Below, in pieces: positions 462-63,849 of a DNA stretch of 64,000 nt (the stretch's first letter is position 1; each line of letters begins with the position of its first letter). The notes under the pieces were generated by a model that did not search any database, was not told where the DNA came from, and saw nothing but the letters and a program-made list of their open reading frames with translations. Position numbers and translations under genes: made by a program. Source of the DNA: Bilabrum cf. latius. Taxonomy: Eukaryota. Location: positions 1,178,001 to 1,242,000 of the forward strand of contig OZ237741.1 in NCBI GenBank assembly GCA_965178125.1, written 5' to 3'.

Positions 462-2993
462 TCACTGCCCGGCAACACGGCCGTAACCCCCCCCGTAAAA
501 CTCCGCCTCGGCCTCGTCCTCCTCGCTCCCCACGTCCCTGTCTCCCATGGCCAGAGGGATCCCGCCCTTAGTGAACCGCTCCACGACCTCCCGCCCGTGC
601 CGCATGGCGAACCGCCCCCCCTGCATCTCCAGCTGCCGCACCGTGGGCAGAGGGGCCTTCCTCCCCCTGCCCCTCCTCCTCCTGGTAGCGTCGGCCATGG
701 GGCCCTATGTCTGTGCGCTGAGACTCTCTGGTCTGCACTCGGGGCAGCAGCAGCAGAAGCAGCAGCATACAAACCCGCAGGACACGCAACCAGCCACGTC
801 ACCCACCCCCTCGAGGCACCCGGCGCACCCGTTGCCCTTGTGAGCCTCGCCGTGGGGGGCAGTCAGCAGCAGCACCAGGCACCCACAGACCAGCTCAGGC
901 AGCGTGTAGAAGAACCAGGGGTAGAACGCCTGGCCCCACACGCCCTCCAGACGCAGGTTCCCGATCGGACCCAGCGCGAACAGCACCGCCCGCAGCGCGA
1001 AGAGAAAAGCGCACGCTACCATGATAGCCCCCACCCTTGTCATGGCAGCCTCGAGCAGCACCAGCAGCCTGGCCACCCGGCGCATCGTCGGCGTCTTGCC
1101 CCCCTCCCCTCTCCCTTCCCTGTCCTGCTCCTCTTCATCCTCGAACCACCCGAGAGCATCCCCGTCCCCGTCCCCGTCCACACCGGACCCCAGAGCCCCC
1201 GCCACACCAGCCTGCACCGACTGCACCATCGTGGACAGCAGAGCCACCGCCCCGCCGGCCCCGTCCTCCCGATTGGAGCCGCCACCGCTGGCCACCCTGT
1301 CTGCCGCCCGCTCCATCTCCCGCTCCAGACCGAACAGGGGATCCGACCACGGGCTCGCAGCTGCGCCCACCTGCCCCCCCGCACCCCGGGCGGACACGGA
1401 GCTCACCGAAGCGAAAGAAGCGCCCCGCAGACTACCCGCCACCGAGCCCCTGTGCCCCCCCAGCCCGCCCAGGGGCCCGCCTGCCGGCCCGAACGGAGAC
1501 CCCAGGCCGGTACCAGCCGCGGACCCGGCACCCGCTCGGCGGCCCATCCGGCCGGTCTCGCCCGCCAGCGCCCGGCGCCCCGAGAGCCTCGTTCCCCCGC
1601 CAAGATAGGAACCAGCCCCCACGTGGCTGTGCCCTGGTGTCCCTTTTGCGGGGGCACCCGCAGAGGAACCCCCGGGGGACGCACCCGCAGCGGTCCCCAA
1701 CCGGGGGACGGGCAGCTCCGGCCCCGTCATGGCAGCCCCTTGCGTGCTGCTGGGCTATGCGTCATCGTAATCAGCAGCAGCAGCAGCAGCCCGTCCGCGT
1801 TGTTCTATTCCCGCCGTCGTCGTCGTCTCCGCGCGCCGAACCGCCCGCAGCTCGATTCCCTTGCCGGATGCAGCAGCAGACCCCGGCCCGGGGACGCTCG
1901 TCACACCACCTTCTACCGATCCAAGCAGCGGCCGGCGGTGCTCCGGAGACCCCATTCCCTTCCCTCCCCCTCCCACACCTCGCACGGGTGTGTGACGAGC
2001 GCCCATGACGGCTGCAGCCAGGTCGCTGCCTCCCGCCCGTGCGCTCCCCTGCCCTCTGCCACCGTTGCCGCCGCCGGCCCCGCCGATCCCGATGACGCGC
2101 CCGAGCGCCTCCAGGGTCCTAGAGAAGATCTCCCCGCCGCCCCCGTCCCTCTGGCTCGGGGGAAGCCGCCCCTGCAGCACCGCGGCCAGCTCCAGCGGCG
2201 TGGACAGCCCGGGCCCCTGCCTCTGCTTGCTGCCCTCCTCCCTACCCGTCGCCTCTGCTCGCTCCTTCCAGGACCTGAGCCCCCCGAGCTGCTGGTCCAG
2301 GCCCTGCCTCACGATGCATCCGTTGTACAGGAGCGAAGCGGCCAGCAGGGCGTAGAGCACGCCCACCTGGATGAGGTAGAGGCGGTGCACGTTGTCGGCC
2401 GATTCCTTGTCGTCCACGATCAGAAACACCGCGAGGATGAAGCCCTGGATGATCACCTGCCAGACCGACAGGAGGAAAAAACTCAAATCCACGCAGTCCC
2501 TGCGAGGAACCGACTCGAGCGCCTTTTTTGCCGAGACGGCGTCCAGCTCGCCCCCGTTCCGGCCACCGGCCGCCTGGATCAGCGCCTGGCACGTGACTGC
2601 CCACTTGTGCCAGTACGTAACGATGAGCGAGAAGGCTGCAAAGAAGAGCAGCTATCCAAATCTATTCACGGCGCTCTCCAAGATCTGCTGCCCGCACCGT
2701 ATACCAGCGCGGCACGATGGCCTACCTTCGACTGGCCTCGAGTCGAGCAGGTCGGTGAACCGAAAGAAGAACCAACTAGCCCGGCACACGAAACAAATCA
2801 CAATTATAAAAGAGAAGTATGTCATAGTTCGCGGTATGTACTCGGGCACAAGGTCCAGCATGGCCCGGAATCGTTGCTGTGCATCCATCCGTCGCCTTTG
2901 CGTGTACGAATAGAGCGCGTAGAAGATGGCGGGGATAAACAGATAGCAGCTAATGGCCTCGTACGACGTCCACTGCGGGTCCCATCGCACCAT
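462..2993 (-). CDS. Multi-pass (about 7 TM) membrane protein, THH1/TOM1 (DUF1084)- or GPCR-like, with Gly-rich low-complexity insert; about 843 aa
   Basis: ORFs 2652-3065, 1755-2492, 705-1730 and 462-698 share one frame and are joined by TAG at 2652, 1755 and 705; ends TGA at 462. Hydrophobic helices include NRFG*LLFFAAFSLIVTYW, ACAFLFALRAVLF and FYPWFFYTLPEL. Start ATG (2993) is inferred. Confidence 0.65.
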
Positions 2994-3677
2994 GCTGACC
3001 CTGCCCCGAGCAGGGAGGCGATGATTTGAGTCAGTCGATCCGGGCGTGGTATGGGCGCCGCGCATTCGGCGGTGCGGAACATATCACACCACCAGCCAGA
3101 AAAGTCTGTCACAATAGTCACGCGTCTTTACATTGCGCAGGATTCCCGGTCCTCGAGTTGGATCCAAGCCGGGTATGCTTACTAGCTAAGCATATCTCGA
3201 CTCGCATCCACTGGCTGTGGGCGATATCATGTGAGCTTTGCGCGGCTAGATTTGGTCGTGTTCCTCCTCGGGACTTTGATTCATGACAGCTTCGAATGGT
3301 GCTCGATGAAGGACACCCACTCTAGAATTGCACTGATCCAATCTGGATGACAACCTTTGGTGCTGAGAGCATTCGTTGCCTTGCGTTTTTGAATTGATCT
3401 CAATGAAGATATTGCCCATTCGATAGGAAGTGCCGTATGATTTACCCTTGATTTGAACCTGGGCGAATCCAACTGAGAGATCGTGTAGTCATGAATAATT
3501 CTGTGCACTTTGTGTGGTATAGACCGCGTTGTGGGACGCGCAAGCCGTGAAATCTTGGTAGCTCGCTTTCCACCTCTCTGCTTCTCTCGCAGCAGACGTT
3601 CATTCGTACAGCCAACTAGTGGATAGACCACTACCATATCCTTTAGACAATCCATTATTTCTATTTTGTGCGAGAGA

Positions 3678-5219
3678 TCAAGTCATTGGGACAGACCCAG
3701 CCCCTCCAACAGCACTCCCACTGCCACCTCCGCTCGAACCGCCGCGGGCCTGTCCTGCCTCTTCCCTCATACGAGCCGAACTTCCCGCCAAACTACCTGC
3801 CAGTGCAGAACCTCCGCTTCTAGCCCCTGCACCTACACCCGAACCGCTGCCCTTCATCCCCGGGGGACCCCACCCGACCCCACCTTCCCCCAGGGTGGGC
3901 CCCCCCTCCCTCCAGATAGCCTGCACCGCGTCGGTGCGGAACCGCTGGGTGCACTGGGTGGCAGACAGCGGGGTCACTGCCCCGTGCTGGTAGGCAAGCA
4001 CGCCCGCCTGCGCGATCATGGCCCCGTTGTCGATGCAGTACCTCGCGTCCATCCCAAAGCAGCGGCCGCCCCTCTCCTCGCACATCTGCGCCATCATGCC
4101 CTGCAGCCGCCGGTTGCAACCGACCCCGCCCACGATGAGCACGTCCTGCTTCTGGGTGTGCGCCATGGCCCGCTCCGTGACCTCTACAAGCATCGCGAAG
4201 ACGTTCTCCTGCACCGAGTAGCACAGGTCGGCGGCCGTGGCCTTGCCCGCCGGAATGAGCGCCCGCGCCTTGGCCTCCGCCTGCTCCTAGATCCCGCCCA
4301 GGGCCATGTCCATGCCCTTGACGGCGTACGGGAGCTCGAAAAACTGCTTGCCGCTGCGATCGGGGCTATCGGGGGGATCGGGGGGATCGGGGCGGGGTGC
4401 GTTGGGGCGGGGTGGGTGATTGGGTAGTGGTGGTGCTAGCCGGATCAGTTGGGGGGGCGCGTGGGGGGCGCTCGTCGTGCAGGCAGGCAGGCAGGCAGGC
4501 CCACTACGGGCTTGGCCGCGATTGGGAGCTGGGAACGTCAGCAAATCGTGTGTCGATAACGGTGTGATGCTTGCACCATACCGTTGGTCGCAAGCAATGC
4601 GATCTCACTCCTTTGCGCACTGCTCGATGTTGTAGCCCGGGCTGGGCGCATTGGGGAGGCCGACCACACGGGCGAATCGATCCAAGCAGTTTCCCACGGC
4701 GATATCGATGGTCTCGCCAAATATTCTGTATCTGCCCATTGTGTACGATATTACCTGCGTGTTTCCCCCTGACACGTACAGCACCACGGGGTCGGAGCCC
4801 TTGGCACCGCCTGTTACCACCCTGCCCATCTCAATATGGGCAACACAGTGATTCACGCCTACCAGGGGCACTTTCCACAACTATGACAGAGTGCGTGCAC
4901 ACATTGCACAGCTAGTAAGAGGCCCACCCATCCCAGGGCCTTGCGTAAAGCAAATAACGTCGACTTCCGCGGGTGCCAGGCCAGCCTGGTTGAGCGCAAG
5001 CCGTACGAGCCCAGTTACGTGGGCCTAATGATGAAGCGCCGTTTCTTTTGGCAGAAAACCATGGCCTGGAGGAGCGTTGAACGTTCTCCTAGGGTTGCTG
5101 AGGATCGAGTACTCATTTGCACTTGGATCATACTTTATTATGCCAACTCCAACCTTGTTAGCAGAGCCTTCAATGCCAAGCGCTATTACTCGTTTCTTTG
5201 GTACTGGCTTGTTTGACAT
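3678..5219 (-). CDS. OSGEP: tRNA N6-adenosine threonylcarbamoyltransferase (KEOPS Kae1/OSGEP); intron 4354-4608
   Basis: Motifs [57 protein letters not shown] and [10 protein letters not shown]. The GTGAG...CAG intron restores [12 protein letters not shown]. In-frame TAG at 5025, 4881 and 4287; ends TGA. Confidence 0.95.
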
Positions 5220-63143: not shown

Positions 63144-63420
63144 AGCCCTAGTCCTAGCAGTCCTCTCGTGAGTCTTCCGAGCACGCAAAGCACCCGTCTA
63201 CACATCTGATTTTCCTCTCGAATGCTGCATCATTCTTGTTAGCCGACGCTATAGTGAGTGAAGAGATGTATCACTGGGGGTTTCCATCAAAAGAAATTCT
63301 GCGTAGCACAGGTAGGGGCTAAGATTTTCGCATTTGCTGATGTTATATAACCGCACGCAACCATATACCTGCGAAATACGGATTCACATCTCATCACAAA
63401 GCTGTCAACCTTATTGCCTA

Positions 63421-63849
63421 ATGGCATCCATACTTCGCAGAATAGCTTCACGGTGTCCTAGACAGCCACTAAAGGTAACCCGGTGGTCATGCCGCTGCAT
63501 CACCACATAGACGCCAGGTGAGCTGCATCTACCTGGAGTTGCAGCGAACGGGGACTACTTATCTGTGACAGTCCGAGTAAAGCCACGCTCGTCTTGTTCT
63601 AGAGTTTCAATAAATGATGCGCTTGGAGTTATTGATATTTGTGTAAAAGAGGAACCCGTGCGGAACAGGGCCAATGATGCCGTGATGAAAGCAGTTGCTC
63701 GTCTGTGCGGCGTGCCAAAGGAGGACGTTGTCTTGATGAGGGGAGCATCGTGTAGGATCAAAACTTTTCGTGTAAATCAGGATCCTGATCGGTGTATCAA
63801 GAAGATCGCCAGCAAGCTGAAGGGAAGAGACAGCCTTTCTAGAATTTGA
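63421..63849 (+). CDS. UPF0235/DUF167 (YggU/C15orf40-like) protein with basic N-terminal presequence
   Basis: VTVRVKPRS...EEPVRNRANDAVMKAVARLCGVPKEDVVLMRGASCRIK; extended upstream through TAG 63508 to ATG 63421; ends TGA. Confidence 0.85.

Follow-up and report, generated by a model that had tools for sequence, protein, structure and literature searches.

UAG very probably encodes glutamine, with UAA and UGA kept as stops, in a GC-rich protist genome fragment that groups beside stramenopiles

Nuclear genetic codes in which UAG differs in meaning from UAA are known from a handful of lineages, and few changes in the evolution of nuclear codes are as rare as the uncoupling of these two codons. 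The cases named in the Discussion of PMC11687900 are the rhizarian exLh (UAG as Leu), Iotanema spirale (Gln), Scotinosphaera (Ser), and Protocruzia tuzeti (Gln), together with phyllopharyngean ciliates (Gln twice, and Leu) and one oligohymenophorean in which UAA is Lys and UAG is Glu. The same text lists the joint reassignment of UAA and UAG to Gln (NCBI table 6) for many ciliates, some ulvophytes, hexamitids, Streblomastix, and Amoeboaphelidium. Here we describe a stretch of 64,000 nucleotides (positions 1,178,001 to 1,242,000 of contig OZ237741.1, assembly GCA_965178125.1, filed under Bilabrum cf. latius; hereafter the window, with its own coordinates) in which genes are interrupted by in-frame TAG. 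The window has 62% GC and very probably belongs to the intron-poor nuclear genome of a flagellated protist in which UAG has changed from stop to Gln, with UGA (main) and UAA (minor) still acting as stops.

A preliminary description of this DNA had proposed that UAG is a sense codon, most likely for Gln, and that UAA and UGA remain stops. This proposal is supported by homology, by the retention of TAG in spliced contigs, and by the residue odds at seven alignable sites. The whole stretch was scanned in all six frames, and this one 64-kb window is the sample for every result on the code. Under standard stops, the 20 longest stop-to-stop open reading frames (ORFs) sum to 10,702 amino acids, compared with 19,087 when TAG is read through (1.78x); reading through TAA or TGA gave 1.04x and 1.29x, respectively. 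In 17 eukaryote-like metagenome loci used as controls (10–21 kb), TAG read-through gave 1.00–1.18x. High GC is not the cause of the TAG effect, since a control locus of 69% GC (L001), from the lineage nearest to ours in the OSGEP tree described below (65% OSGEP identity), gained only 1.14x. With TGA read through, the longest ORFs of L001 grew 2.04x, which is probably a chance effect of removing the stop triplet that occurs most often at very high GC.

When TAG was translated as X, Pfam families identified in the window included TsaD/OSGEP, a PLRG1-type WD40 propeller, sulfatase, melibiase with ricin-B lectin, GT61, AAA/Vps4_C (FIGNL1-like), DAO, MIP-T3 with ankyrin repeats, PhyH, SNAP, kinase with armadillo repeats, 2-hydroxyacid dehydrogenase, Arf, EF-hand, and DUF167. 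Domains that span TAG were TsaD/OSGEP, PhyH, Ricin_B_lectin/melibiase, DAO, AAA/Vps4_C, Ank, and Arm/kinase. Moreover, phmmer alignments to solved structures ran gapless through the TAG positions of PHYHD1, FIGNL1, and both OSGEP exons, in agreement with the earlier remark that conserved domains continue on both sides of TAG. A codon-usage model was trained on 3,978 homology-backed codons, and for each ORF the 3' part that scored best was taken as its conservative segment. The 22 clearest segments held 61 TAG, 0 TAA, and 0 TGA in 14,110 codons; a wider conservative set held 66 TAG in 15,177 codons (32 segments), and liberal models of 16 genes held 80. The earlier manual count of more than 70 in-frame TAGs in about 19 of 23 genes was therefore about right. 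The genes are interrupted by TAG only, and in the stretches traced for the preliminary description in-frame TAA, TGA, and frameshifts had likewise not been found. Five confident genes lack TAG (Arf/ARL, sulfatase, SNAP, 2-hydroxyacid dehydrogenase, and the membrane protein at 44239–45207).

A flank test, independent of the gene models, asked of every stop triplet in six frames whether codon usage is coding-like in the 40 codons on each side. At a threshold of 0.15, both sides were coding-like for 24/858 TAG, 1/368 TAA, and 1/1365 TGA; at 0.10 the counts were 35, 2, and 1. The TAA cases are on the strand opposite to genes, one (37032, minus strand; threshold 0.15) opposite to that at 34519–38796 and the other opposite to the armadillo gene. 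These results confirm the in-frame TAGs as genuine and abundant, far in excess of chance expectation. In the coding segments TAG (61) stands near the level of CAA (85) beside CAG (451) and makes up ~10% of Gln codons, i.e., it is a well-established minor codon.

UAA and UGA, by comparison, still terminate. According to the codon-usage model, TGA is the terminal codon of ~16 genes and TAA that of four, the latter being the sulfatase (17096), a membrane protein (44239–44241, minus), SNAP (46618), and the kinase-armadillo gene (53477). The preliminary description was correct that most genes end at TGA and the rest at TAA but counted three TAA genes, to which the membrane protein is now added. Past each of the four TAAs the in-frame coding score is negative, GC at third codon positions (GC3) is lower (in SNAP it falls from 0.70 to 0.48–0.66), the translation is junk, and TAG, TAA, and TGA cluster. 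Were TAA a sense codon used relative to TAG at the CAA:CAG ratio (85:451, 0.188), the 14,110 codons should contain 11.5 internal TAA. None was observed (Poisson P ~1e-5), a zero that arises partly by construction, as TAA and TGA delimit the segments. Each homology-backed gene nevertheless fits completely into its own ORF, the flank test reveals no gene split at TAA or TGA, and in PLRG1 and the alpha-galactosidase TGA falls exactly at the C-terminal ends of the homologues. In-frame TAA as frequent as TAG, which the preliminary description had associated with the standard ciliate code, was thus not seen.

The TAGs were also followed into independent sequencing data. Parts of 3500–9300 are contained in 15 sequencing runs, none of which is recorded as RNA, and four of these (X5–X8) were compared with window 3400–23399, where contig coverage is incomplete (e.g., much of 19.4–20.7 kb is uncovered). 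Contigs of X5, X7, and X8 contain five GT..AG joints in gene sense that match the gene models. The OSGEP joint (4353/4609) is exactly the intron predicted from homology (4354–4608); the others are in the Arf/ARL gene (8870/8979 and 9056/9157), the alpha-galactosidase (19022/19120), and a GST-like gene (21022/21114). Because of these joints and the clean 421-codon OSGEP frame after splicing, X5, X7, and X8 behave as RNA, whereas X6, with an unspliced 7.7-kb contig (5117–12791) that has 0 differences from the window, behaves as DNA. An RNA-like contig also spans the whole PLRG1 gene (6344–8261; 0 differences). Among the 23 in-frame TAGs of gene models within 3400–23399, 20 are present on the listed RNA-like contigs with 0 other letters, so that the check in RNA called for in the preliminary description comes out in favor of unaltered TAG, the RNA nature being deduced from the joints. 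Two of the 20 (15017 and 15047) are covered by the sulfatase contig alone and may fall outside the real coding sequence. Seven TAGs share a contig with a splice joint: five belong to the alpha-galactosidase and one each to the GST-like gene and OSGEP. Contigs with joints that keep TAG at 0 differences come from X5 and X7. For the covered sites, TAGs left unchanged on spliced contigs exclude editing, splicing-out, and pseudogenes.

The differences listed between runs and window all fall at 22643–23295, and none touches an in-frame TAG, so that they yield no polymorphism between TAG and a synonymous codon. At that place, the 3' portion of the GT61-like gene, a second contig version that is ~5–8% divergent occurs beside the identical one in X5, X6, and X8; an allele, a paralogue, or a different strain might account for it. 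A further joint in X5 and X7 (13049/22975) skips 9,925 bases, has ends CC..CA, and has a short side of only 21 letters. This joint is probably due to a low-complexity repeat or a chimeric contig and is not an intron.

With regard to the amino acid, homologues were aligned for four proteins, and 11 TAG sites were inspected. The score was log2 (column frequency/background) summed over usable sites; as alignment rows are related sequences, the summed bits overstate independence. Over seven alignable sites the sums were +16.4 for Gln, -6.8 for Leu, -13.3 for Ser, and below -15 for all other residues. Gln was the top residue at 4/7 sites and was present at two more, with one site discordant; Leu was the top residue at 2/7. 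At OSGEP site 1 (HHxAH), Gln occupies 112/120 rows and Leu and Ser 1/120 each, among the 120 listed of 3,954 matches, a scope that holds for all three OSGEP sites. Two TAGs in the ricin-B domain of the alpha-galactosidase stand on the Q of QxW-type motifs, where Gln is found in 37/38 and 36/38 of the 38 best of 66 matches and Leu and Ser in 0. The (QxW)3 pattern is a hallmark of the ricin-B fold. Searches of this domain against the PDB gave insignificant matches only (E 0.66–0.88), and an alignment to the GalNAc-T2 lectin that placed both TAGs on the QxW Q was not counted; the N-terminus of the DAO-like protein had no match in the PDB. For PHYHD1, 149 of 150 listed representatives were aligned (one row of 1,427 amino acids was dropped), with Gln in 70/130 filled rows at site 1 and S 45, D 33, A 26, and Q 18 of 148 at site 2. 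Judged from these columns, Gln is most likely the meaning of UAG, although the sites are few and one disagrees.

Several observations weigh against reading UAG as Gln with UAA and UGA as the stops. Only 7/11 TAG sites were alignable: two alpha-galactosidase linker sites (>60% gaps) were skipped, and the two N-terminal PLRG1 sites could not be aligned, with 88/102 rows gapped at one and mixed residues at the other. At OSGEP site 2 (LSxLW) Leu (83) exceeds Gln (24), and site 3 (GGIxEQ) is a strongly conserved Leu column (L 114/120, Q 0), where eight neighboring residues are likewise atypical in this organism. The FIGNL1 site (E/E/E/A/A in PDB homologues) and the kinase site (G in PINK1 only, weak scores) are variable positions and uninformative. 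In a neighbor-context likelihood test for TAG, Gln came 17th among the 20 residues; the test is uninformative and has little power, because it failed on 8/8 control codons, for which the true residue came 2nd to 13th and never first. The TAA stops number just four, none with a homology-anchored C-terminus. A tRNA scan of the 64-kb window returned 0 genes, and tRNA-Gln(CUA) and eRF1 are not among the window genes. The run kinds on record are guesses, and the RNA nature of X5, X7, and X8 is deduced from spliced joints. The main weak points are the few informative sites, the single discordant Leu site, and a provisional taxonomy.

Other explanations need to be weighed against the same data. UAG and UAA could both be read as Gln, as in ciliates and ulvophytes (table 6), with UGA as the sole stop and TAA scarce from high GC. 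TAA is indeed rare everywhere in the window (180–189 triplets per strand in all frames, vs. 429–431 TAG), and the training set predicts only ~2.6 TAA (14 TAG x 0.19), so that its zero is weak alone. Yet four genes stop at TAA with the coding signal lost downstream, 0 genuine TAA have coding flanks on both sides compared with 24–35 TAG, the 11.5 internal TAA expected above are missing, and the longest ORFs gain only 4% from TAA read-through, which makes a table 6 code highly improbable. It is also very unlikely that UAG encodes Leu (as in exLh) or another residue such as Ser, or that it is decoded ambiguously. The Leu-rich OSGEP sites 2 and 3 and PHYHD1 site 2, where Ser is commonest (45/148), would suit such a code, as would the armadillo repeats, in which one position alternates between TAG (11), CAC (8), TGG (5), GTC (3), and CTG (2), i.e., with H, W, V, and L, and in which one TAG stands where every other repeat has TCG (Ser). 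The alternation is not decisive for the meaning of the codon, however, and the negative sums for Leu and Ser, their absence at the two QxW sites, and their near absence at OSGEP site 1 speak for Gln.

A context-dependent UAG of the Condylostoma/karyorelict type, sense within genes and terminator near some transcript ends, is given a similarly small probability. One TAG of the DAO-like gene (28878, minus) lies 7 codons ahead of the TGA, and the coding score drops after it, so that sense and stop are both possible there; 12 TAGs have a coding-like flank upstream only. The preliminary description had stated that genes never end at TAG, and in the window no homology-anchored C-terminus does so, those of PLRG1 and the alpha-galactosidase being at TGA. 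The general form of that statement is weaker, given that the absence of TAG ends is partly by construction and that 28878 is ambiguous. Nonetheless, most of the 12 TAGs are outside genes or directly past a real stop, and the excess of upstream-only over downstream-only coding flanks is unclear for TAG (35 vs. 31) and present for TGA (35 vs. 18) and TAA (13 vs. 7). Least probable of all, to the point of being negligible, is that the TAGs are not translated and represent pseudogene lesions, assembly errors, RNA-edited sites, or unrecognized introns. Nothing positive points to this, although chance long low-complexity ORFs can occur in GC-rich DNA (e.g., 57851–62950, with 0.02 per codon). Against it, TAGs fall where housekeeping genes, OSGEP among them, align without gaps, genes are interrupted by TAG and never by TAA, TGA, or frameshifts, TAGs are kept with 0 differences on spliced RNA-like contigs, the independent run X6 matches the DNA over 7.7 kb with 0 differences, and the PHYHD1 gene of a 98%-identical strain shows a stop at the corresponding position. 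We conclude that UAG is translated as a sense codon.

The mechanism proposed for Iotanema spirale (PMC5304391) combines tRNA-Gln(CUA) with an altered eRF1: only a tRNA with anticodon CUA reads UAG while ignoring UAA, tRNA-Gln(CUA) is one mutation from tRNA-Gln(CUG), and the eRF1 changes pointed to are T32G in Iotanema and L69A in exLh. By analogy, UAG as Gln in our organism would be decoded by a tRNA-Gln with anticodon CUA, which would pair with UAG and not with UAA and could have arisen from tRNA-Gln(CUG) by the same single mutation, and eRF1 would have lost or weakened its recognition of UAG. The reassignment would be fairly old, as TAG already makes up ~10% of Gln codons. Codon capture under AT pressure would not explain it, since high GC does not make TAG disappear, and the combination of high GC with TGA-dominated termination argues against codon disappearance as the route. 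If true, the case would favor an ambiguous-intermediate route via a CUG-to-CUA mutation of tRNA-Gln. A further origin would also be an independent replicate for how eRF1 loses UAG yet keeps UAA and UGA and, in a GC-rich, non-ciliate, and probably stramenopile protist, would test base composition as a driver.

Two quick single-gene trees (FastTree) with hit-selected taxa were used for placement. Among the matches listed, the best named match of OSGEP was the dictyochophyte Rhizochromulina marina (75%), and environmental proteins reached 77%. In the OSGEP tree (120 listed matches plus the query), the query fell in a 38-row clade (support 95) that holds the three oomycetes as its only named members, apart from the ochrophyte clades. 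In the PLRG1 tree (120 matches), the query and the protein P0194 share a long branch within an 11-row clade of environmental sequences. The sister group of this clade (support 96) comprises 42 rows, the named ones being ochrophytes without exception. Placed elsewhere are fungi, animals, Plasmodiophora, Balamuthia, and Blastocystis. With moderate confidence, these trees suggest a stramenopile-affiliated lineage outside the ochrophytes that is so far known from environmental data only. The position beside stramenopiles also fits the earlier view that the organism is not a ciliate and possibly represents an independent origin, with a placement that is only moderately secure. An Arf/ARL gene and an IFT54-like MIP-T3 domain would fit a flagellate, and PhyH and DAO an aerobe.

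A strain of 98% identity is represented in public protein sets, from other assemblies, by fragments that were predicted with the standard code. P0194 (PLRG1) starts past both PLRG1 TAGs, and P0451 and P0480 (PHYHD1, from two contigs) both have their last residue directly before TAG 147. It follows that the PHYHD1 stop triplet is conserved in this strain and, as all three proteins start or stop at TAG positions, that standard-code annotation fragments these genes. Since standard-code callers break genes at every TAG, code 15 is needed for annotation, binning, and phylogenomics of the lineage. A metagenome scan for relatives yielded 80 loci, the closest of which was just 65% identical in OSGEP. 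The identical sequence (contigs of 1–7.7 kb, 0 differences) was found in runs under four coded organism labels (A–D) from four studies; because an unchanged genome recurs under four labels, the sequence may come not from the labeled organism but from a protist present as a co-culture, contaminant, or symbiont. A full-text literature search that covered only a minority of subscription journals found no report of UAG reassignment in a stramenopile nuclear genome. We put at about even the chances that this is the first non-canonical nuclear code in a stramenopile-affiliated lineage, i.e., that UAG came to mean Gln independently and fairly long ago, in a genome of 62% GC with UGA as the main stop and in a carrier that is possibly an unrecognized co-cultured or contaminant protist.

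The OSGEP/Kae1 gene (TsaD family; 3678–5215, minus) consists of exon 1 (~4609–5215), the intron at 4354–4608, and exon 2 (3678–4353), which give a clean 421-amino-acid frame with three TAGs (5027, 4883, 4289) and a TGA at 3678–3680. The PLRG1/Prp46 WD40 gene (6424–8193, plus) has two TAGs in its variable N-terminal part (6628–6630, 6643–6645) and ends at TGA (8191–8193). The alpha-galactosidase with an inserted ricin-B lectin domain (17206–19548, minus; intron 19023–19119; TGA 17206–17208) has five TAGs (19515, 18333, 18201, 17853, 17844), of which 18333 and 18201 are those on the QxW Q. The PHYHD1-like phytanoyl-CoA dioxygenase (38936–40096, minus; TGA) has two TAGs (40048, 39703), as do the FIGNL1-like AAA ATPase (26065–28491, minus; 26499, 26169; TGA) and the FAD-dependent oxidoreductase of the DAO family (28855–30828, minus; 30690, 28878; TGA). 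Gly/Ser/Ala-rich C-terminal extensions past the homologue ends are seen in OSGEP (~75 amino acids; 3678–3900), FIGNL1 (~115; 26065–26410), and PHYHD1 (~45; 38936–39080), and low-complexity expansion seems general in this genome. The PINK1-like kinase with ~30 armadillo repeats (47780–53479, plus; TAA 53477–53479) has 15 TAGs, 11 of them at one repeat position. The repeats (49500–53400, plus) are near-identical and measure 126 bp (42 residues) each. The kinase may be a pseudokinase, because its predicted catalytic-loop motif, HRSLKLDN, is without Asp.

The genes free of TAG include the Arf-family (ARL3/ARL2-like) GTPase (8414–9230, minus; TGA), with introns of 108 and 100 nucleotides (8871–8978, 9057–9156) and by far the deepest contig coverage among the RNA-like runs (within 3400–23399), and the D-2-hydroxyacid dehydrogenase (56691–57758, minus; TGA). 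The sulfatase (14948–17098, plus; TAA 17096–17098), the membrane protein (44239–45207, minus; TAA 44239–44241), and SNAP (soluble NSF attachment protein; 45451–46620, plus; TAA 46618–46620) have no TAG in their coding parts. Single TAGs interrupt an EF-hand protein ORF with uncertain limits (5394–5999, plus) and a GST-C-like gene under the Pfam cut-off (20916–22203, plus; GT..AG intron 21023–21113; TAG 22018–22020; TGA 22201–22203). A multi-pass membrane protein without a Pfam family (462–3083, minus; TGA 462–464) has three (707, 1757, 2654, given as codon ends in plus coordinates), the glycosyltransferase-61-like gene (22385–25300, minus; TGA) has 4–5 (23791, 23830, 24319, 24898, 25036), and the gene with an IFT54-like MIP-T3 CH-like domain and ankyrin repeats (30919–34059, plus; TGA) has 2–3 (33343, 33679, and one near the start).

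The remaining models are mostly low-complexity proteins. One without a Pfam family (9494–12385, minus; TGA) has 1–5 TAGs (10756, 11695, 11881, 12169, 12262). An adjacent ORF (12540–15074, minus; TGA), with an uncertain 5' limit and an overlap with the sulfatase region, has 0 TAG in its best-scoring 3' part and seven further upstream. Three larger ones are located at 34519–38796 (plus; seven TAGs; TGA; weak CCDC142 match under the cut-off), at 40235–44230 (minus; 9–10 TAGs; TGA; also with a membrane part), and at 57851–62950 (minus; 10 TAGs; TGA), the last being the ORF with the weak coding score. A DUF167/YggU-family ORF with an uncertain start (63262–63849, plus) has up to three TAGs upstream of the domain. 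The region 53500–56600 (GC 0.55) has no confident gene model and only short ORFs without a Pfam match (54092–54749, minus), and an Rfam scan of the 64-kb window gave 0 matches.

When compared with described codes, the window resembles table 6 codes in a change from stop to Gln, probably via a mutated tRNA-Gln, but differs in that UAA is not a sense codon. The rhizarian exLh (PMC5304391) shares UAG-only reassignment in a protist known only from mixed samples, and two OSGEP TAGs stand at Leu columns; the seven-site sums (Leu -6.8 bits, Gln +16.4) differ from its Leu. The green alga Scotinosphaera, in which UAG is Ser and UAA a stop (PMC11687900), is a likeness in UAG-only reassignment outside ciliates, whereas Ser scored -13.3 bits here and the window does not group with green plants in the gene trees. 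UAG as Gln with UAA kept as a stop is described in PMC11687900 for Protocruzia tuzeti and two phyllopharyngean lineages. These are ciliates, and our organism is not, by gene trees and composition; separate from them, it would be a further independent origin. The closest likeness is with the fornicate Iotanema spirale, in which UAG alone became Gln and UAA and UGA are stops (PMC5304391, PMC11687900). In that organism UAA is described as the dominant stop, whereas UGA dominates here (~16 genes vs. four with TAA); in addition, our window has 62% GC, carries oxygen-dependent enzymes (PhyH dioxygenase, DAO), and has genes that group with stramenopiles rather than metamonads. The case thus joins a known, very rare code variant (NCBI table 15-like), and what is new is its apparent phylogenetic position.

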